A DNA stretch of 64,000 nucleotides, taken from assembly GCA_000092065.1 (NCBI GenBank), contig CP000582.1. One strand, given 5' to 3'. The notes beneath the pieces were generated by a model. It did no database searches, was not told the DNA's origin, and was given only the letters and a program-made list of their open reading frames with translations. This document shows, one piece after another, positions 7,910 to 19,159 of the stretch. Positions within the stretch are counted from its first letter, which is position 1. Each line of letters opens with the position of its first letter. The DNA comes from Ostreococcus lucimarinus. Its lineage: Eukaryota. Made by a program: the position numbers and the translations under genes.

Positions 7910-8004
7910 CGCGCGCGCGCGCGCGCGCCACTGGCGACGGGCGTCCGTCGATCGTCGTCGCGACCACCGGTCGCACTTTAAGCCTCGCCTCAACCGCCGT
8001 CGAC

Positions 8005-9240
8005 ATGCGAGTCTCGGTGCACGTCGCCGAACTCGACCTCATCGTCAACGTCGACGTCTCTCCGGACTGTACGGTCGCAGACCTCAAAGCTGCCGTCGCC
8101 TGTGAGTTCCCAGACGGCGATCCGCGCGATATAACGCGCGCCAAAGTTTTGAAAGATGCCAAGCAGATTCCAGATGCGTCAAGTTTACGCGACGCCGGCG
8201 TCGTGCAGGACGACCTGTTGATCGTGTCGCTGGGTGCATCCGGTGGGGAAAGCATCGCGTCGGCGGACGCGCGCGCGCTTGCGGCGGATGGTAGCGCAGT
8301 GGACGCGCAGGCGATGATGGAGAGTTTTCGCGGCAACGCCGGCACGCTCGAGGCGTTGCGTCGGCAGGGAGGAAGCGAACTCGTCGATTGCATCGAAGCG
8401 AACGACGTGGAGGGGTTTCAGAGAATGATGCGGGAGATGCGGAAACGGATGTTAGCGGCGAGGGAACAGGAGGCGGAGGAGATGGCGTTGATGACGAGCG
8501 ACCCGTTCGACGTCGAGGCGCAGCGGAAGATTGAGGAACGCATCCGACAAGAACAGGTGTTAGGCAATTTTGCGACCGCGATGGAGGAAACGCCCGAGGC
8601 ATTCGCTCAGGTGGTGATGCTATACGTCGATCTGGAGGTGAATGGAGTGGCGCTGAAGGCGTTTGTCGATAGTGGGGCGCAGATGTCGATCATGTCGGTG
8701 ACGTGCGCGCGACAGTGCGGACTGGAAAGGCTCATCGACAAGCGGTTTAGCGGCATCGCGAAAGGCGTGGGGACGCAGAACATCATTGGACGCGTGCACC
8801 AGGCACCGATGAAGGTGGGTGAACACTTCTTGCCGTGCGCGATTACGGTTTTGGAGAAGGAACAAGACATGGACTTCATCTTTGGTTTAGACATGCTGCG
8901 CAGACACGCGTGCTCCATCGACTTGAGGAAGAACGCCCTCGTTATCGGCTCGGTCGACGTGGAGTTGCCGTTTTTGAGCGAGAGCGAAATTGGAAAGACA
9001 GCACAGGAAGCGTTTCAAGGCAAAGCGCCCGAGGCGGCGATCCCGACCCCCTCGGCGGCGGTCCCGACCCCCTCGCCGGCGGTCCCGACGCCCTCGACGA
9101 CGCCTTCGTCTTCGTCGGCGCACGACGAAGAAAAAATTGCTCGATTAACCGCGCTCGGCTTTTCTCGGCAGCAAGTTATCGACGCCTTGAACGCGACGAG
9201 TGGTAACGAAGAGTTTGCGGGTGCGCTATTGTTCGGTTAA
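8005..9240 (+). CDS. DDI1: DDI1-like protein: ubiquitin-like domain, retroviral-type aspartyl protease domain, C-terminal UBA
   Basis: ATG at 8005. N-terminal UBL-like region; protease active site FVDSGAQMSIMS (D-S/T-G-A); C-terminal UBA-like LTALGFSRQQVIDALNATSGNEEFAGALL. Internal 21 bp x3 repeat encoding (A)VPTPS at 9037-9100. Confidence 0.8.
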   Translation: MRVSVHVAELDLIVNVDVSPDCTVADLKAAVACEFPDGDPRDITRAKVLKDAKQIPDASSLRDAGVVQDDLLIVSLGASGGESIASADARALAADGSAVDAQAMMESFRGNAGTLEALRRQGGSELVDCIEANDVEGFQRMMREMRKRMLAAREQEAEEMALMTSDPFDVEAQRKIEERIRQEQVLGNFATAMEETPEAFAQVVMLYVDLEVNGVALKAFVDSGAQMSIMSVTCARQCGLERLIDKRFSGIAKGVGTQNIIGRVHQAPMKVGEHFLPCAITVLEKEQDMDFIFGLDMLRRHACSIDLRKNALVIGSVDVELPFLSESEIGKTAQEAFQGKAPEAAIPTPSAAVPTPSPAVPTPSTTPSSSSAHDEEKIARLTALGFSRQQVIDALNATSGNEEFAGALLFG

Positions 9241-9319: not shown

Positions 9320-11707
9320 CTAAAGCGAAGCGTGAAAAGTACGAGCGATGACTTCCTCTTGATGTGCTCGCGAGAGTTTGATGAAATTCACCGCATACCC
9401 GCTCACGCGAATGGTGAGGGTGGGATAGTTGTCTGGATGCGCCATGGCGTCTAACAGTACCGATCTATCGATACAGTTAACGTTCAAATGTTGAGCGCCG
9501 TGTGAGAAGTAGCCATCCAGCAACGCAGTCAAGTTCGAGACTCGAGTCCCGTCCGTCTTGCCGAGCGATGGCGCGGTGATGGAGAACGTGTTGCTGATGC
9601 CATCCATGCAACTCGCGTACGGGATCTTTGCCACAGAATTGAGTGAATTCAAAGCACCCGTCTTGTCGCGATTGTGCATCGGATTCGCGCCCGGCGCGAA
9701 CGGTTCACCGAGTTTTCGCAAATCCGGCGTCGCGCCAGTATGTTTCCCGTACATGACGTTGGACGTAATCGTCAGAATCGAAAGCGTGTGCTCGGATCCT
9801 CTATACGCTGGCGTCTTTCGTAAACTCGAGATGAACGTTTCCACAACACTGGCGGCGATGGTGTCAACCTCATCGTCGTCGTTGCCAAACGCGGGCCAAT
9901 CGCCATCGACCTCGAACCGAGTGGATAATCCCGACTTTTCGTCGCGAATCATCTTGACTTTTGCGTGCTTGATGGCGCTGAGAGAGTCGGCCACAACGCT
10001 CAACCCAGCGATGCCGAACGCCATCATCCGCTTGCAATCGGTGTCCATGAGCGCGAAAAACAAGGCCTCGTAGTTGAATCGATCATGCGAGTAGTGGATG
10101 CAGTTCATCGTCTCCACGTAAAGCTTGGCGAGCCAGTCCATGTACGCCGTAAAACGCTTCATCACGTCATCGTATTGTAAAACACCTTCAGGAACTTCGT
10201 CGTCGAAAAGCGCGGGCGCGACGCGGGCGCCGGTGATTTCGTCGCGACCGCCGTTCAGCGCGTAGAGAAGAAGCTTGGGTAGATTGCATCGCGCGCCGAA
10301 ATATTGCATGGTATGCCCCAACTGCATTCCCGACACGCAACAACTGATACCGACGTCGCTCGATTGAAACTTTTCCCGCAGTAAGTCGTCGGAGATGAAC
10401 TGAATTGAGCTCGACTCGATGCTGATCGCCGCCGCGAATTCTTTAAACGGCTTCGGCAACGATTCGCTCCACAAAACCGTCATGTTTGGTTCCGGCGCCG
10501 CGCCCATGTTGCGTAGCGTTTGTAGAAACCTCCAAGAAGTCTTCGTCACCAACGTGTCGGTGCCGTTCATCTGCATGCCACCCACGCAACACGTGGCCCA
10601 GATGGGATCGCCGGCGAAAATGTCGTCGTACGCCTCCGGTCGAAGATGCCGAACGAGTCTCAGCTTGAGCACAAAATTGTCTATGAGTTCCTGCGCGCCC
10701 GATTCGTCGATGAAACCAGCCTTCATGTCGCGCTCGATGTACACATCAAAAAAAGCGTCGACTCGACCGAGAGAAATCGCCGCGCCGTCGTGTTCCTTCA
10801 CGCACGCGAGGTAGGCAAAGTACGTCCACTGAACCGCTTCTTTGCAATCGCGCGCGGCGGCGCCGATGTCGAAACCGTACATTTTTGCCATCGCCTTGAG
10901 CCGCTCCAACGCGCGAATTTGCTCCGACACCTCAAATCGTGCGCGCAAGTCCTCCTCGTCGCTCGTCGCGATGGCATCTTTGTCGATTTGCTTCTCCGCG
11001 ATCAACCGATCGACGCCGAACAGCGCCACGCGGCGATAATCCCCGATCAAGCGCCCTCGTCCGTACGCGTCCGGGAGCCCGAGCAAGAGATGCGCCTTCC
11101 TCGCCGATCGCATTTCATCCGTGTACAAGTCGAAAACCGCGTCGTTGTGCGTCGTGACCCAATCGTCAAAAAACTTCTTCGCGTCCTCCTTCATCGTCGC
11201 GCCGCGCTCGCCCAGCGCCTTCTCCACCACGCGCAACCCTCCCAACGGCTTCATCGTCCGCGTGAGCGCGCGCGTCGTCTGCAGCCCGACCACGACGTCG
11301 TCCACCTCCTTCGACAGCACGTACCCCGCGCCGTGCGACGTCGCTCGCGACGGCGTCTCCGCATCCACCGCCAGCGCCCCTCCCGCGCGTCGCTCCAGCT
11401 CGAGCAACCGCCGCGCCTCCGCCAGCAGTTCCAGCGTCTTTCCCGTCGGTTTCGCGAGCGTCGTCGCGCAGTCGTCCGCGCGCGGCGTTCCGCGCGCGCG
11501 CACGAACGCGTCCACCGCGTCCACCGCGAGCGTCATGTCGTCGTCGTCGTCGCGCTGTGCCGCGCGTCGTCTCGCGTCGTCTCGTCTTCTCTCGTCTCGG
11601 CTCGGCTCGGCTCGGCCGAGAACGTCGATTCGCATCCCGACCGAACCGTCGCGAGATTCGCGTCGACGGTCGACCGCGCGCCACCCCCCCCGGCGTTCGC
11701 GCGACAT
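9320..11707 (-). CDS. PFL: Pyruvate formate-lyase (glycyl radical enzyme) with N-terminal extension
   Basis: Collinear with PflB throughout ([35 protein letters not shown] active site region). C-terminal glycyl radical motif [11 protein letters not shown]. Start uncertain: ATG 11707 chosen so as not to overlap the divergent gene; an upstream in-frame ATG at 11941 would add a transit-peptide-like S/A/R-rich 78 aa. Confidence 0.85.
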
Positions 11708-11759
11708 TCCGAGGCGACGCGCGCGAATCTCGACGGCCGCCGACGCGCGCGCGCGGGCG

Positions 11760-14700
11760 ATGCGCGCGCGATGGGACGCGCGACGCGCGGGACGCGCGCG
11801 CGCGGTCGTCGCGGTCGTCGTCGCGGCGCTCGCGCTCGCGAAACGGGCCGCGGGGGCGACGCACGCGGTGACGATCGAGACGGGATCGGCGCTGAGCGGA
11901 CGACGCGACGCGGCGACGGGGACGCAGGAGGCGCTGATCATGGTGACGCACCCGGCGGACGTGACGGTGGACGAGGCGGACAAGGCGAAGCTGACGAAGG
12001 TGTTTAAGACGCAGACGGAGGCGTACTTCGCGTGGGCGTCGTACGGGGCGCTGACGCTGAACGTGTCGGTGTTCTTTCATCAGCTCGGTTCGAACGAGAA
12101 GGACGCGAACGGGGCGTGTAATCCTCACCCGGATGCGTCGGCGGCCGACGGCGTGCATTATAACCCGTGGGATGCGAGCGCTGATTTTCAAGAAGTGTAC
12201 GATTCGTACGCGGGCGACCCCGGGACGAACCGAAACTCGGGAAGGAAACACATGCGGACGTTCATGCATTTGACGAACACGTGCACGGGGACGTGCGAGT
12301 CGAACACGAACGGCATCATCTGCACGCAGAAGCACTCGTCGGTCACGGCGTGCGCCGACGCGGATTCCACGACGGAGTTGTGCGATACGACGGAGATTCA
12401 CGAGCTTTTACACGCAATCGGGCTCAAATATCACTCGGGCGGGTACAAGTGCAAGCAGTCGGATTACGACGACTCGACTACGACGTGGCGGCTCTGTGAG
12501 TACAAAGATTACGGTGGCGTCTTCGATGTCTTGGGCTCGGGCTCGGACACGTACGGGAAAAAGATGGCGTGGGGCGTTTCTTCGTATTTAAGATGGGACA
12601 TGCACTGGCTCTCTAACGATAACGTGAAAGTCATCACGAAGACCAACGGACGCGTTGACGACGACGCGGCTGATGTGAGTGAAACGTGCATCCTGAGTTC
12701 GTTGAGTGTTGATACGACGGAGTCCTCGACAACGCGCGCGTGCGTCGTTCGTTTCTCTGATGATACCATGTCGGATTTGGGTACGATCTGGCTCGAGCTT
12801 CGAAGTGGCAACAAGTTCGACAATCTTATCCTTAACGGCGAGCACAGCGGATTCAACTCTCTCGGTGTGCTCGGTTATCACGAAGGGAACAAGTTGATTG
12901 ATTTCTACCCACACGCCGCTGATTCAACAGACGCTGCGAAATACGACGACTGGGAACAGACGGCGCTGAGATCGACAGAAAACGGCGGCGTTTGGATAGA
13001 CCCCGTGTCAGGACTAAAGTTAACGGTAGCCGCGTTCGATTCAACATCTCAAACGATCACGGTTACCGTCACGTTTGGCCAACCGGCGGAGTGCAGCAAA
13101 AGAGGCGCGAAGGCGTATCCGAGTCAGTTTCTTGGCTACGGGGTGTGGCACGTCCGCATGTCAAACGACAGCGAGAAAGATAAGTATTATCCAAGCGTCA
13201 ATTTGGCCGATTATCCCGGCGACGCCTCGTCGATCACGAATGACAACTTCAGAACCAATTATTTCACGACTTCTTACTTTGATCAGTACATCCCTTATGC
13301 TGATAGCGGAATTCAGTATACGGTGCAACAAAAAGAATGCTATAAAGTCGTGCTGCAGTATAGAATGAGCGTGCAAAATTTGGATTACGGCGCGTGCGCG
13401 AAATCTCACTTGACAGTGCGCGGGTTGAATCTGCCCGCCGGTTGGCGAGTTGACGAGGGCGGATGCGTGAACGCAGCAGGCGCACAAGCAGTCGTCGACG
13501 ATATATGTTTCGTCGTCGCCGTGGACCCGAACACTGCCGATGGCGCTTACGAAATCCGAATCCAAGCCGCTCAAATCAACTACAGCGATAAAGCAGTGAT
13601 GGCGGCTACGGAGACTGTCCCACTCTGGGTTTGCGTGGGCGGATACAACCATTATACTCAAGCGTGGGGTGACAACGCTTGGACGTGTGACTACGGGCCC
13701 GTGGGATCTAAAACCAGGGTGACAGGTAGTTCTGGCACAATAATCAACCGGGCGTCGAGTACGTACGAGGCGAGCTCGACGTATTATTCGACTTCGGACG
13801 TCTCAGCGAGGAAGAGCAGCACGGCGATTCATTACACCCGGAATCCTGAGGTCACGAACGACGGCGCTGACCGTCTGCAATCAATGTCCAGTATCGCGAT
13901 CGCAGAAGTGAGCGATGATCGTTGTTATCAAGTTACGAGCACGCGATACTGCTCGGCCAACCATTACGTCTGGAGTCAGTACGTCTGTTCGGCGTGTCCG
14001 ACAGACTCAACCCGCCCTGAAGGCGATGATAGCTGGCTGGCCGACGGCGAGACACAGTGCTCGTGTCCAGACGGAACCGCTTGGTCAAACGGCATGTGTG
14101 TCCCTGCCGCCTCGTGCTCCGCGGACGAACGCGTGAACAGTGCCGGTGCGTGTGTGGCGTGTCCATCTGGCTCGACGAACGAGGCGGGTGACGTCGCACC
14201 TGGGACCGAGACCAAGTGCGCTTGCGCCGCGAACTATCGCGTGAACAGTGCTGGCGCGTGCGAGGCGTGTCCATCTGGCACGACGAACGCGGCGGGTGAC
14301 GTCGCACCTGGGACCGAGACGCAGTGCGACTCTGCCGCCTCGTGCTCCGCGGACGAACGCGTGAACAGTGCTGGTGCGTGCGAGGCGTGTCCATCTGGCT
14401 CGACGAACGCGGCGGGTGACGTCCCATCCGCGGGCGAGACGCAGTGCGCTTGCGCCGCGAACTATCGCGTGAACAGTGCCGGTGCGTGCGAGGCGTGTCC
14501 ATCTGGCTCGACGAACGCGGCGGGTGACGTCCCATCCGCGGGCGAGACGCAGTGCGCTTGCGCCGCGAACTATCGCGTGAACAGTACCGGTGCGTGCGAG
14601 GCGTGTCCATCTGGCTCGACGAACGCGGCGGGTGACGTCCCATCCGCGGGCGAGACGCAGTGCGCTTGCGCCGCGAACTATCGCGTGAACAGTGCCGGTG

Positions 14701-15653
14701 CGTGTGTGGCGTGTCCATCTGGCTCGACGAACGCGGCGGGTGACGTCGCACTTGGGACCGAGACCCAGTGCGTCTGCAATGATGGCTACTCACTTTTGAA
14801 TGGTGAGTGCGTTGAGTCAACCGAGGTTGAAGTCAAGGTTGAGTTCGCGGGAATCACACAAGTCATCGACGATACCCTCGTGCAGACGCTCCAAAACGCG
14901 CTGACGACGTCGCTTTTGGCAGACACCACTGGCGTTCAAGTGGACCCGGCTAATATCACCATTAAGTACACGATGCTAGGAAAGCAAACGTTCTCGTCCC
15001 CTGTGGATGAAAGCTCGTTCATCACCGCCGCCGCGTCGTCGTTGGGTGTCGCCACGTCTGACATTGAGAACTTTGCGCAAAGCGCGGCGCGCAGGCGTCT
15101 ACTCAGCAACATCGTGACGTATCAAGTCGTGACGACGAATAGAGCGACGTTGAACACAGCTTTGTCTGCGGCAAGCTCTCCAATCACCGTCGGCGGCGTG
15201 ACTGGAACGGGTGCCGCACCGACGACGACGATAGCCGCCGAAATCAAGACAGCGATCCCGACTTCGCAGGCGTCCACCGTCACTGCGACTCTCAATGATC
15301 CATCCTTCACTACGGATATCGCAACATCAGCCTCGAACGCGGGTGTCAGTGGTATCTCGATCTCTTCGCCGCCGTGCACTGGACTCACGCAGCCTGCGAA
15401 CGGCGTTTCTGGTACGTGCGGCTCCGAGCTCGCCAGCGGCTCGTCGTGTCAACCGACGTGCAACTCTGGGTACACCGTGAGTGGCCAGACGACATGCATC
15501 GCCGGTGCGCTCACGGCCGCGACGTGCTCGAGTAACAGCGGCTCATTATTTGGCGGCTTCTTGGGCTTAGTATCCGCCGCAGGTGTTCCGCTCTTCCACG
15601 TTGACACAATTTTGCTCGCAACGGTCGCGCTAGGCGCGCTACTCGCGCCGTAA
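11760..15653 (+). CDS. Secreted/anchored zinc metalloprotease-like protein (HExxH) with six Cys-rich 36-aa tandem repeats, a sushi-like Cys module and a C-terminal hydrophobic anchor
   Basis: ATG 11760 followed by signal peptide [27 protein letters not shown]. Zinc-binding motif [12 protein letters not shown]. Repeats [36 protein letters not shown] x6 (ephrin-receptor-like / TNFR-like Cys spacing). [17 protein letters not shown]...[13 protein letters not shown] sushi-like. C-terminal [17 protein letters not shown]...ALLAP hydrophobic tail (GPI signal or TM). Confidence 0.65.
14107..14775 (+). repeat. Coding tandem repeat, 108 bp period (one 120 bp variant), 6 copies
   Basis: gcgtgaacagtg recurs at 14131, 14239, 14359, 14467, 14575, 14683. 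Copies are >90 percent identical at the nucleotide level, which suggests recent expansion or concerted evolution. Confidence 0.9.
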
Positions 15654-15841
15654 ATTCGGCGACGCCACCCGAAAGAATGTATCATCACTTAAATCCATCG
15701 CTCACGCGCATCGATCGTCAATCGTTCGCGTGATGAATTGCTATTAGTAACTTGTTTTCCTCTCGCCTCGTCTCGAAAGTCGATTCTTATCCCGAGACTC
15801 TGCACTCCACGCCACTTCGCGACGACGACGACGAACGAAAA

Positions 15842-16816
15842 ATGCGCGACGACGACGAAAAAGCCCAACCAAAAAGCCCAACATTTTGCTTTGCCACCAA
15901 GCGCCGCGGAGCTTTTCCGCCACGTCCGCGACCGATCGTTTTCCTGCCGCCCGAGCGCAACTACGCGGCGCGGGGCTTGGGGCTGCTCGGCGGCGACCCG
16001 GCGAGCGCGGCGGACATCGAGGACTGCGGTGCGGTCACCGGGCGCGTGCACAGCATCGATACTTTCACCGCGGTCGATGGACACGGAATACGATGCATCG
16101 TGTTCCTTCAAGGGTGTGAAAAACGATGCGCGTTTTGCTGCAACGTCGATTCGACGCACGCCGCGCTCGCGAAGACGCCGAATCCCGGGCGCACGATGTC
16201 GGTGAACGATATAGTCGAAATTTTGAAGCGAAATCGCAAGTATTACGCGAGCTCGGAGGGAGGTGGGCTAACGCTTTCCGGGGGCGAATGCCTGTTGCAA
16301 CCGGCGTTCGTGGAGGCGGTGGCGATCAAGACGCACGAGATCGGCTTGACGGTGGCGATCGACACCGCCGCCAGTGGGGACGCGGAGACGTGGAATCGCG
16401 TGTTGCCGCACGTTGACGTGGTGCTGTTGTGCGTGAAGAGCTCGAGTTTGGAAAAATACAAAGCCATCACCGGTACGACGGAACGCGAGTACGAGACAAT
16501 GCGCGCGTTTCTGAAAGAATTGAATCGCCGCCGTGTGAAAACTTGGTTGCGATTCGTGCTCATGAGCGATCCGGATTCTCGATTCGTCGACTTTCGAACG
16601 AACGACGAAAACGAGCTCCGCGGTCTGGCGGAGCTCGCGAAAACACACGAGTGTGTTGAGGGAATTGAGCTTTTGCCCTATCACAGATTCGGCGAGTTTA
16701 AGTTCAGCGAGCTCGGTCTCGAGTACAAGCTCGAGGGCATGCGGACGCCCGACGCTGAAGAAATTCACGCGGCGCAGACGTTTTTGCAATCTCAAGGCGT
16801 GACGGTGATTTGCTGA
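15842..16816 (+). CDS. PFLA: Pyruvate formate-lyase activating enzyme (radical SAM) with N-terminal presequence
   Basis: TGRVHSIDTFTAVDGHGIRCIVFLQGCEKRCAFCCN matches the PflA N-terminus including CX3CX2C. ORF-track start 15752 is TTG; first ATG at 15842. Confidence 0.8.
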   Translation: MRDDDEKAQPKSPTFCFATKRRGAFPPRPRPIVFLPPERNYAARGLGLLGGDPASAADIEDCGAVTGRVHSIDTFTAVDGHGIRCIVFLQGCEKRCAFCCNVDSTHAALAKTPNPGRTMSVNDIVEILKRNRKYYASSEGGGLTLSGGECLLQPAFVEAVAIKTHEIGLTVAIDTAASGDAETWNRVLPHVDVVLLCVKSSSLEKYKAITGTTEREYETMRAFLKELNRRRVKTWLRFVLMSDPDSRFVDFRTNDENELRGLAELAKTHECVEGIELLPYHRFGEFKFSELGLEYKLEGMRTPDAEEIHAAQTFLQSQGVTVIC

Positions 16817-16864: not shown

Positions 16865-18550
16865 CTAAAACCACGCCGCGCCGCTGTGCGCGTCGTAAAA
16901 CGCGCGAGCCGTCGTGATCTCCGATGGCGTCGCGAGAAGCGTCGACGCGCCGGCTTCGACCACTCTAGCCACCACGTAATCTCCCGCTTTAATGTCCACC
17001 TCCTTTCCGCTAGAATTACTAAACGCGCGCTTACCTTGTATGACGACGCGCTTGCCGGTGTCCGATCGCCCGCTCATCTGCGCCTCGGGATCCTTTTTGC
17101 TCGCGCCTTCGACGAGCACCAAGTGCGTCCGACCGACTTCCGCGGCGTTCGCCTCGAGCGCGCGACGACGGAACGTCGCGATAACTTCCGCAAGCCTCCG
17201 TTTTTTCACATGTTCTGGAACGTCGTCTTCCAAATTTCTGGCCGCGTGCGTCTTCTCGCGCAATGAATAGTGAAACATGAACGCCTGCTCATAGCGAACG
17301 TCTTCGAGCAGCGAGAGCGTCTCCGCGTGCTCGTCCTCCGTTTCACCGCAAAAGCCGCTGATGAAATCGCTCGAGAGCGCGACACCCGGAATCATCTCGC
17401 GCGCGCGCTTGATTAAATCCAAGTACACCTCTCGCGTGTATCCGCGTCGCATGCGCTCCAAAGTCGAGGTCGATCCGCTCTGCGCGGGCATGTGCAATTG
17501 CTTGCAAACGTTTGGCGTCTGAGCGATGACGCGTAATAAATCGTCTGGGAAATCTTTCGGATGCGGCGACGTGAACCGCACGCGTACCTCCTGGTCCAAG
17601 CCCGCGACGGCGGAGATGAGGTCCGCGAACGTGCGCGCGCCCTCGCGCTTTGGCTTGTACACCGATTTGAATCCTTTCGCGTACGCCGCGAACGGGTCGT
17701 CGTCCGCCGACGTCGTCGCCTTCATCGGCGCGTCCGCGTATGAGTTCACGTTTTGACCCAGCAAAGTGATTTCCTTCACGCCCTCCGCGATCAGCCCGCG
17801 CGCTTCGTCGACGACGGATTCGAAAGGTCGACTTCGCTCCCGTCCTCGCGTAAACGGCACCACGCAAAACGCGCACATGTTATCGCATCCTCGCATCACC
17901 GAAACGTACGCCATCGGCGACCCCACGTCTCTCCGCACCGGTCGCACGTCCGCGTACGTCTCATCCAACGACAACAGCACGTTCATCCGGTGTTCCTCGC
18001 TCAAATCGCTCAACCGTCGAGTCGAATTTTCCAACAGCCTCGGCACGTCCCTGTACGCATCCGGCCCGCACACCAAATCCGCCAAATCCTCCGTCTCCAG
18101 TAATTTCGCCTTCAATCGCTCCGCCATGCACCCCAAGACGCCGACCGTCGTCAACGCATGTCCCGCGTCTCGCTTCAGCGCCTTCAACTGCCGCAATCGC
18201 GTCCACACGCGCGACTCCGCGTTGTCGCGCACCGCGCACGTGTTCACCAGCGCCGCCGTCGCCTCGCGCAGGTCCTCCGTCGTCGCCACGCCGTGCGCTC
18301 GCAGAACGCTCCGCACGACGTCCGAGTCCGAGACGTTCATCTGGCATCCGTACGTCTCGATGTACACGCGCGTCGGCGCGCGCGTCGTCGTCGCCGTCTT
18401 CGCCGCCGCCGAGTCGCGCGCCGAATGCGTCGCGCGCGCCGCCTCCACGACGCGCGCGCCGACCGCCGTCCCGCCGAATCCGTCGCGCGCGCGCGTCGCG
18501 GACGCCGCCGCGCGCCGCAGACGCATCGCCGCGTCGCGCGCGCGCGTCAT
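16865..18550 (-). CDS. tRNA methylthiotransferase, MiaB / CDK5RAP1-like radical SAM enzyme
   Basis: MTTase N-terminal domain VYIETYGCQMNVSDSDVV; radical SAM CDNMCAFC; C-terminal TRAM-like region. ORF start 18649 is GTG; first ATG at 18550 (MTRARDAAMRL), presequence-like N-terminus. Confidence 0.75.
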   Translation of the reverse strand: MTRARDAAMRLRRAAASATRARDGFGGTAVGARVVEAARATHSARDSAAAKTATTTRAPTRVYIETYGCQMNVSDSDVVRSVLRAHGVATTEDLREATAALVNTCAVRDNAESRVWTRLRQLKALKRDAGHALTTVGVLGCMAERLKAKLLETEDLADLVCGPDAYRDVPRLLENSTRRLSDLSEEHRMNVLLSLDETYADVRPVRRDVGSPMAYVSVMRGCDNMCAFCVVPFTRGRERSRPFESVVDEARGLIAEGVKEITLLGQNVNSYADAPMKATTSADDDPFAAYAKGFKSVYKPKREGARTFADLISAVAGLDQEVRVRFTSPHPKDFPDDLLRVIAQTPNVCKQLHMPAQSGSTSTLERMRRGYTREVYLDLIKRAREMIPGVALSSDFISGFCGETEDEHAETLSLLEDVRYEQAFMFHYSLREKTHAARNLEDDVPEHVKKRRLAEVIATFRRRALEANAAEVGRTHLVLVEGASKKDPEAQMSGRSDTGKRVVIQGKRAFSNSSGKEVDIKAGDYVVARVVEAGASTLLATPSEITTARAFYDAHSGAAWF

Positions 18551-18583
18551 GGACGCGACGTCCGTCCGTCGCCGCGCGTCACG

Positions 18584-19159
18584 ATGCGGCGCGCGTCGTG
18601 GACGCTCGCCGCGCCCGCGCGCGCGTTCGCCGCGCGTCGGCGCGCGCACGGCGCGCTCGACGCGATCAAATCCTGGCTCGCCGGCGCCGACCGCGAGGAC
18701 GACGACCTGTCGATTCGCGACTACGTGTCCGCGCTCGAGCGCGCCGAGGTCGAAAGATTTTCGAGCTCGGACGCGCGCGCGAAGTCACCGGCGGAGATCT
18801 CGTTCCCGGCGTCGCGCGCGCGCGCGTACGTCGACACGATGACGGCGCGCGAGCTGGAGGATCCGGGCGCGATGTCGGCGAGACGGCGGCGCGAGCTCGG
18901 CGCGCGCGCCGAGGTGGATGAGTTGCTCAGGGCGCACGCGCTGACGCGCGCCGTCGCGCGGCGGACGAAGGCGATGACGACGACGCCGACGTCGCCGGAG
19001 GCGCTGGCGGAGGCGCTGCGGGACGGGGATGCGAACATGTCGACGGCGCAGCGACGGCGCGAGGCGGCGGCGATGCGAGGCGCGTTTCCGGGCAATCGAC
19101 CGTGTCCGTGCGGGTCGAACAAAAAGTTTAAGCGCTGTTGCGGCGTGCCGACGAGCTAA
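18584..19159 (+). CDS. Small protein with C-terminal SEC-C metal-binding motif
   Basis: C-terminus RPCPCGSNKKFKRCCG matches the SEC-C motif (CPCGSGKKYKKCC). First ATG 18584, only 33 bp from the divergent MiaB-like ATG. The rest of the protein is low-complexity A/R-rich, so the call is moderate. Confidence 0.45.
   Translation: MRRASWTLAAPARAFAARRRAHGALDAIKSWLAGADREDDDLSIRDYVSALERAEVERFSSSDARAKSPAEISFPASRARAYVDTMTARELEDPGAMSARRRRELGARAEVDELLRAHALTRAVARRTKAMTTTPTSPEALAEALRDGDANMSTAQRRREAAAMRGAFPGNRPCPCGSNKKFKRCCGVPTS

Follow-up and report, generated by a model that had tools for sequence, protein, structure and literature searches.

The 64,000-nucleotide stretch of the Ostreococcus lucimarinus genome analysed here (contig CP000582.1 of assembly GCA_000092065.1; hereafter the window) carries the genes of pyruvate formate-lyase (PFL) and of the radical S-adenosylmethionine (SAM) enzyme that activates it (PFLA), which point away from each other and are separated by a gene, here called X, for a predicted secreted metalloprotease. 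Comparison of this locus with those of related algae suggests that PFL and PFLA form a functional module whose genes were ancestrally a tight head-to-head pair, and that in the O. lucimarinus clade this pair was split by the insertion of X with duplication of the promoter core; we give this reading as a whole a probability of roughly 0.75. The two genes would have stood head-to-head in the ancestor common to Ostreococcus and Bathycoccus, across a short spacer that served as a shared bidirectional promoter. A segment of ~4.1 kb carrying X would have entered this promoter on the branch leading to the O. lucimarinus clade and duplicated the promoter core, one GTCGATTC..ATCCCGA copy coming to lie between PFL and X and the other upstream of PFLA. 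PFL and PFLA would each have retained a copy of the element, and X would have taken the place opposite PFL that had formerly been occupied by PFLA.

The ancestral arrangement is suggested by the lineages in which no gene separates the two. In O. tauri (CAID01000002.2) PFL, on the minus strand, and PFLA, on the plus strand, stand directly head-to-head with 117 bp between the annotated starts, a distance that becomes shorter if the conserved upstream methionine codon of PFLA is used. The spacer measures 53 bp in the Ostreococcus-like loci L010/L011 and 63 bp in L014, and the head-to-head order recurs in further Ostreococcus-like lineages (L027-30, L031-36 with their relatives, and L044) among the 39 metagenome loci compared. 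In three Bathycoccus-like lineages the corresponding distances are 94 bp (L008/L009), 148 bp (L018) and 11 bp (L015). The Bathycoccus flanks encode a DUF285 protein and FtsZ, not the Ddi1 and MiaB-like proteins, and the pair is still intact there, B. prasinos OZ116945.1 being among these loci. Altogether, directly apposed genes with spacers of roughly 10-200 bp were found in O. tauri, in at least five other Ostreococcus-like lineages and in three Bathycoccus-like ones.

In a genome which we take to be ~13 Mb in size, PFL and PFLA would fall within 4.3 kb of each other by chance with a probability below 1e-3; since, in addition, their adjacency is kept in every Ostreococcus-like or Bathycoccus-like lineage sampled, the proximity is more than chance. 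The preliminary description of the window, made from the sequence alone, had spoken of a residual linkage. The linkage is real and is conserved in the synteny comparison, but instead of being residual it appears to go back to a tight ancestral pair that was split in the O. lucimarinus clade alone. One metagenomic protein of 530 amino acids (P0031) unites PFL-like, Gly_radical and radical-SAM Pfam matches in a single product, and may be a fusion of PFL with PFLA or else an artefact of gene calling that ran two neighbouring genes together.

Gene X occupies the site between PFL and PFLA only in contigs of the O. lucimarinus type (L001-6, L021 and L025) and in a sister lineage, L013, which has ~91% nucleotide identity to the window; another contig (L023) holds only the 3' end of X and PFLA. 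As to the synteny across relatives that had been envisaged for the three-gene locus, the pair itself is found in Ostreococcus-like and Bathycoccus-like lineages, whereas the order PFL-X-PFLA is confined to the O. lucimarinus clade and PFLA has no PFL within 8 kb in one Mamiellales-like locus (L017, see below). In a neighbour-joining tree of PFL and PFLA, with Bathycoccus as the outgroup, the window and L013 group together with 100% bootstrap support inside an Ostreococcus clade that is itself supported at 100%. Because the two form a single clade and X is absent from the PFL-PFLA site in the other lineages sampled, one gain of X suffices.

The opposite course of events, in which X ancestrally separated PFL from PFLA and every other lineage lost it by an exact deletion, would call for two or more, and realistically for many, clean deletions independent of one another, each of them leaving a functional short spacer, and the direct repeat that flanks X is the signature to be expected of an insertion. 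The X family does seem to be older than the O. lucimarinus clade, as a homologue with 54-59% identity (its 90% cluster includes an O. mediterraneus protein) is present in an O. mediterraneus-like genome. This homologue, the only one outside the O. lucimarinus clade for which genomic context was obtained, lies at an unrelated locus (L012) among PsbP-like, PPP4R2 and MJ1567-like genes, and the scenario of repeated deletions can be given hardly any credence. No match to these neighbouring genes was found in the window or in the other loci, and X may have reached its present site by translocation or by duplication.

The repeat in question is common to the PFL-X and X-PFLA spacers and is built around the core GTCGATTC(NN)ATCCCGA. 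Its first copy has the core GTCGATTCGCATCCCGA at 11624-11640 within an extended repeat at ~11605-11640, and its second copy the core GTCGATTCTTATCCCGA at 15779-15795 within an extended repeat at 15761-15795; the copies have the same orientation, and in both a CTCGTCTCG-like sequence precedes the core. In the window the score of the repeat was reached by 30 of 2000 Markov shuffles (p ~0.015). The L013 repeat spans 72 columns, flanks outside the core included, and its score was not reached in any of 2000 Markov shuffles. A related 10-mer, GTGACG[AG]TTC in one or the other orientation, is present a single time per locus of 4-21 kb in all seven representative Ostreococcus-like loci that are not of the lucimarinus type, and in these seven loci without X it is placed within the PFL-PFLA spacer or at its edge. 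A (GAC)n tract directly adjoins the ATG of PFL in the window and another, at 15818-15834, precedes that of PFLA; the succession of the element, a (GAC)n tract and the PFLA ATG is also seen in several lineages without X.

Another reading, rather unlikely but to be reckoned with, accepts the insertion of X and takes the two copies of the element for separately maintained or convergent sites of one regulator acting on PFL and PFLA. The core is indeed short, TGACG-like cores are common as regulatory motifs, the element stands in either orientation in different lineages, and the repeat of the window is only moderately significant. Duplication of a pre-existing promoter core would agree better with the extension of the L013 repeat into non-core flanks, at a score unmatched by the shuffles, and with the common orientation and common CTCGTCTCG context of the two copies.

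Two other repeated features of these spacers were observed. A 25-nucleotide inverted repeat containing the (GAC)n tracts (11537-11562 and 15810-15834) lies directly 5' of the PFL and PFLA starts, each in its own sense, with a score reached by 4 of 2000 shuffles; (GAC)n tracts also precede PFLA in L027, L031 and L036, and the inverted repeat may be a shared leader element or a mere microsatellite. The X-PFLA spacer of L013 (15785-15983) contains three tandem copies of ATCACTTTAATCC, and the window has one related copy, ATCACTTAAATCC, at ~15691-15703, a short way downstream of the stop codon of X.

A number of points weigh against the history proposed here. The deep Ostreococcus branches of the neighbour-joining tree are poorly supported (42-58%). 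The repeat of the window is short (~36 columns), so that two selected transcription-factor sites could explain it, and alignment gives weak support to its homology with the spacers of other lineages, which hold a single copy (p 0.04-0.35). Most of the metagenome lineages carry no species name, and neither RCC809 nor O. mediterraneus was positively recognised among them; the metagenome scan recovered no RCC809-like locus (PFLA ~81% identical, P0002) longer than ~1.8 kb. In L017, a GC-rich (0.69) Mamiellales-like locus whose GC content and MiaB-like neighbour suggest Mamiellaceae and which may come from a Micromonas, PFLA (8001-8864) adjoins the MiaB-like gene, as in Ostreococcus, and has no PFL within 8 kb, so the tight pair is not universal in Mamiellales. 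PFLA was not linked to PFL in Vitrella. Finally, promoter sharing, continued co-regulation and the mechanism of insertion are what we infer from sequence comparison, the first two from a single feature, the conserved 10-mer of the spacer.

PFL and PFLA both look functional, judging by their sequences. The minus-strand reading frame ending at 9320 matches the Pfam families PFL-like (PF02901, E 1.4e-177) and then Gly_radical (PF01228, E 2.2e-34). It scores 936.4 bits with TIGR01255, below the NCBIfam equivalog cut-off of 994.2 bits, which was calibrated on prokaryotes; the assignment to PFL nevertheless stands, since the next-best family reaches only 234 bits and the best PDB match is E. coli PFL (E 4.6e-236), aligned over residues 27-758 of PflB. 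The RVSGY motif with the radical glycine (9395-9409, residues 710-714) matches the region of E. coli G734, and the catalytic cysteine pair in ISCCVSG (10328-10348, residues 397-403) that of C418/C419. The identity of the gene is therefore as it had been described; its extent is not.

Gene callers disagree on the length of this protein, giving 738, 772 or 874 amino acids for the same gene, and the preliminary description had extended the gene to 11707. Six wild metagenome contigs of the O. lucimarinus type, ~99% identical to the window over the flanking genes, served for comparison. Among these haplotypes, L003 lacks 5 bp and L004 lacks 2 bp of the stretch 11537-11759, in which L001 and L002 have larger replacements or insertions, and the protein from the ATG at 11536 onward is 99.7-99.9% identical. 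Frameshifting indels in such close haplotypes, together with the lengths of the orthologues (742 amino acids in O. tauri, 744 and 749 in other Ostreococcus-like lineages, 772-774 in Bathycoccus), place the PFL start at the ATG at 11536. An upstream exon would have no room, as the divergent PFLA is only tens of bp away in the orthologous loci. The 795-amino-acid version starting at 11707, for which an exact look-up gave no match, is ruled out by the frameshifting indels. The long antisense reading frames over PFL and X (e.g. 10646-12007 on the plus strand and 11166-12401 on the minus strand) were likewise rejected, as high-GC artefacts.

From this start, residue 10 of PFL pairs with residue 27 of the E. 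coli enzyme, and the N-terminus is 17 residues shorter than that of PflB. No presequence was found on PFL, the upstream 171 bp (11537-11707) being non-coding by their indels and the start being conserved, and for this reason the enzyme is probably cytosolic.

The assignment of PFLA agrees with the earlier one in both identity and extent. TIGR02493 is its top-scoring family, with 203.6 bits against an equivalog cut-off of 231.75; Fer4_12 and Radical_SAM Pfam matches are present, and from its own residue 65 the protein aligns with residues 2-242 of the E. coli PFL-activating enzyme (PFL-AE; E 1.2e-32). The CX3CX2C motif is CEKRCAFC (16115-16138, residues 92-99), and the SAM-binding GGE motif is contained in SGGEC (16277-16291, residues 146-150). 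The product has the same sequence as the O. lucimarinus CCE9901 protein XP_001416074.1. Its N-terminal extension of ~64 amino acids (15842-16033), which contains no internal methionine, is absent from the bacterial enzymes, so that of the N-terminal extensions earlier ascribed to both partners that of PFLA is confirmed and that of PFL is not. The extension begins with MRDDDEK and counts 9 acidic and 10 basic residues, and the motifs FCxA[RT], L[GS]L[LR]GG and D[IV]E[DS] are conserved in it across lineages; with its acidic start and conserved motifs it is no obvious transit peptide and seems atypical of a simple one.

All the residues required for the radical chemistry, which is established biochemistry of this enzyme family, are present in the two proteins. 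PFLA would reductively cleave SAM at its [4Fe-4S] cluster and take a hydrogen from the PFL glycine in RVSGY; the activated PFL, with its cysteine pair, would then turn pyruvate and coenzyme A into formate plus acetyl-coenzyme A under hypoxia.

The locus might also be seen as the remnants of an organelle-targeted bacterial module whose genes are loosely linked, with the metalloprotease an ordinary neighbour and the spacing without history. Such an interpretation would fit the bacterial type of both enzymes, the ~64-residue extension of PFLA and the organellar location of the Chlamydomonas enzymes (PMC8003979), but we regard it as quite improbable: PFL has no extension, the two genes directly abut in all the other Ostreococcus-like and Bathycoccus-like lineages sampled, and the gap is both clade-specific and flanked by repeats.

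The signal peptide and HExxH motif of X, together with the predicted metzincin fold, support the secreted metalloprotease that had been proposed for the middle gene. The gene extends over 11760-15653 (Table 1). The N-terminal domain is predicted to share the catalytic fold of immune inhibitor A (InhA), a metzincin. AlphaFold2 modelling of residues 34-770 with 9 close sequences gave an unusable result (pLDDT, the predicted local distance difference test score, of 33), and an alignment of 19 sequences was needed. The third histidine of the motif stands one residue beyond the HExxHxxGxx[H/D] consensus; among 19 divergent relatives with identities down to ~20%, conservation of the H, E, H and fourth-position H is 90% or higher, and in one of them the motif is spaced as in canonical metzincins, HExxHxxGxxH. 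The family profile weakly matches the active-site helix of adamalysins and of MMP-16 (E 0.05-2.6). Scans of X against Pfam (to E 10) and NCBIfam yielded no family and no Peptidase_M6, and those of 20 relatives yielded no peptidase family. A word-indexed search with X returned 26 close relatives, two of which are MMETSP transcripts, so the family is expressed; a HMMER scan of 1.84 billion representative proteins found 45 members. That X belongs to a narrowly distributed and undescribed family of InhA-like metzincins is thus supported at the level of the predicted fold. InhA2 of Bacillus anthracis (MEROPS M6; PDB 4YU5) has 13% identity to X, which lacks a Pfam Peptidase_M6 match, and the M6 motif has an aspartate where X has its last histidine. 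Compared with metzincins such as ADAM/adamalysin and fragilysin, X has HExxHxxGxxxH with the histidine one residue later than is canonical. Unlike InhA2 and these metzincins, X is fused to cysteine-rich CxxCPSG repeats and a putative C-terminal anchor of the membrane or glycosylphosphatidylinositol (GPI) type, by which the protein is probably attached to the cell surface.

X also appears to be variable. The relatives range in length from 985 to 1927 amino acids; metagenome orthologues have 985-1225 against 1297 in the window, and the L013 orthologue, of 1927 amino acids, has extra repeat types and an inserted domain. These differences may reflect either copy-number variation or collapse of short-read assemblies. 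Between the protease region of the window (11859-14069) and that of L001 (6369-8564) there are ~46 nonsynonymous and 6 synonymous differences, a nonsynonymous to synonymous rate ratio (dN/dS) of 2.2, while the same comparison shows 3-4 differing sites in PFL and Ddi1 and none in PFLA or the MiaB-like gene. When L013, the sister lineage, is compared, dN/dS is 0.45-0.57 for X and 0.17-0.22 for PFL, PFLA and Ddi1. As a surface protein, X may thus be under diversifying selection or relaxed constraint; a chimeric metagenome assembly is also possible. A viral origin or vectoring was considered and rejected: neither PFLA nor the X family had relatives in scans of IMG/VR, and in the giant virus TetV-1 the PFL (TetV_428) and PFLA (TetV_456) genes are not adjacent.

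Table 1. Positions of the genes, protein features and spacers of the PFL-X-PFLA locus in the window
Feature	Position	Strand	Basis or remarks
SEN1/UvrD-type helicase open reading frame, 2160 amino acids	1511-7993	-	
Ddi1-like aspartyl protease/UBA gene	8005..9240	+	Pfam; identical to XP_001416072.1; collinear flank in Ostreococcus
PFL (pyruvate formate-lyase), 738 amino acids	9320..11536	-	Pfam, TIGR01255, E. coli PflB alignment, haplotype indels
PFL-X head-to-head spacer, 223 bp, non-coding, with repeat copy 1	11537..11759	.	Haplotype indels, direct repeat
Gene X, 1297 amino acids	11760..15653	+	Signal peptide, HExxH domain, cysteine-rich repeats, hydrophobic tail
X, N-terminal signal peptide	~11760-11858	+	
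X, InhA-like metzincin domain	~11859-13200	+	Predicted fold; followed by a beta-rich region, then CxxCPSG repeats
X, putative zinc motif HExxHxxGxxxH	12399-12434	+	
X, cysteine-rich CxxCP[ST] repeats	14115-14772	+	Seven units in all; position of the six coded by 108-bp tandem repeats (36-amino-acid units)
X, C-terminal cysteine module, then hydrophobic tail	15540-15650 (tail)	+	
X stop-PFLA ATG spacer, 188 bp, with repeat copy 2	15654..15841	.	Presumed PFLA promoter and leader
PFLA (PFL-activating enzyme), 324 amino acids	15842..16816	+	TIGR02493, Radical_SAM, Fer4_12, E. coli PFL-AE alignment
MiaB/CDK5RAP1-like radical-SAM methylthiotransferase	16865..18649	-	Pfam UPF0004, Radical_SAM, TRAM; collinear flank; true start probably internal to this frame

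The eukaryotic nuclear setting of the locus, recognised from the outset, is evident from the Ddi1, SEN1-type helicase and CDK5RAP1/MiaB-like neighbours as well as from the identity of the PFLA product to an O. lucimarinus protein. The GC content of the window is 0.62. Wild contigs of the O. lucimarinus type match the window at 99% from position 7972 onward and break off from it abruptly upstream. In place of the upstream sequence they carry a giant type-I polyketide synthase (PKS) gene (positions 1-2300 of L001-L006 and 1-6236 of L007), which is on the plus strand, encodes up to 7326 amino acids and ends 7 bp before a longer Ddi1 reading frame. The helicase reading frame stands there instead of the PKS in the window (strain CCE9901), in L013 and in L010/11, and O. 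tauri has the PKS and a gene of 503 amino acids. The junction at 7972 is a ~22-kb structural polymorphism or a relocation at a promoter-sized junction.

Biochemically, the module corresponds to the two-protein glycyl-radical system of E. coli (PflB, 1H16/2PFL; PFL-AE, 3CB8/8FO0), with which it shares, over full-length alignments, the RVSGY, Cys-Cys, CX3CX2C and GGE motifs. The bacterial pflB-pflA operon is co-directional, whereas the Ostreococcus genes are nuclear and ancestrally divergent from a shared spacer. The algal proteins also differ from those of E. coli in the PFL N-terminus, shorter by 17 residues, in the ~64 residues added to PFLA and in scores slightly below the bacterial equivalog cut-offs.

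Another counterpart is the PFL1/PFLA module of Chlamydomonas reinhardtii, on which Atteia et al. reportedly wrote in 2006 and which is likewise a green-algal, nucleus-encoded and laterally acquired PFL pathway of dark anoxia. PMC8003979 and PMC3660698 review this fermentative module; in Chlamydomonas, PFL1 has a dual destination, the plastid and the mitochondria, and PFLA has a predicted transit peptide, and a PFLA of Micromonas pusilla is listed as well (PMC8003979). Organelle-targeted PFL1 thus differs from the PFL of O. lucimarinus, which has no presequence. That green algae, Mamiellophyceae among them, have PFL and PFLA, and that these are of lateral origin, is established according to the passages on this subject in PMC8003979 and in PMC12458973, the latter citing Stairs et al. 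2011. A full-text literature search, in which Stairs et al. 2011 was not included, found no statement on the arrangement of the PFL and PFLA genes.

As a gene arrangement, the pair resembles the bidirectional-promoter pairs of compact eukaryotic genomes, in that functionally coupled genes lie head-to-head across a spacer of at most 200 bp and are kept so across genera despite differing flanks. It departs from them in consisting of laterally acquired genes of bacterial type and in that, in one clade, an inserted gene appears to have split the promoter and the promoter core appears to have been duplicated. In O. lucimarinus PFL is now paired head-to-head with X, at a distance of 223 bp. It is conceivable, though unlikely, that X was thereby captured on the PFLA side of a hypoxia- or dark-responsive bidirectional promoter, the duplicated core keeping PFLA regulated. 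If this were so, O. lucimarinus would co-induce a cell-surface protease with its fermentative module, which would be a natural case of the wiring of a gene into an anaerobic regulon by insertion and promoter duplication, and surface remodelling in mating or in interactions with viruses and grazers might be tied to low-oxygen or night physiology.

The PFL/PFLA module of prasinophyte algae is already known, and what is new here is modest: the conserved divergent pairing, its clade-specific split with duplication of a repeat, the corrected PFL start and the recognition of the X family are details, none of them categorically new. The retention of a tight divergent PFL-PFLA pair despite differing flanks suggests selection for co-regulation through one promoter, and the GTGACGRTTC-like cis-element is a concrete candidate for hypoxia control in an ecologically dominant picoalga. 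The O. lucimarinus clade offers an example of how such a divergent pair may be split without loss of the element. With its variable repeat number and its excess of amino-acid changes in natural populations, X is a candidate surface protein under diversifying selection. The PFL of O. lucimarinus, having no presequence, is probably cytosolic, unlike its Chlamydomonas counterpart, and this matters for models of dark metabolism in picoalgae.

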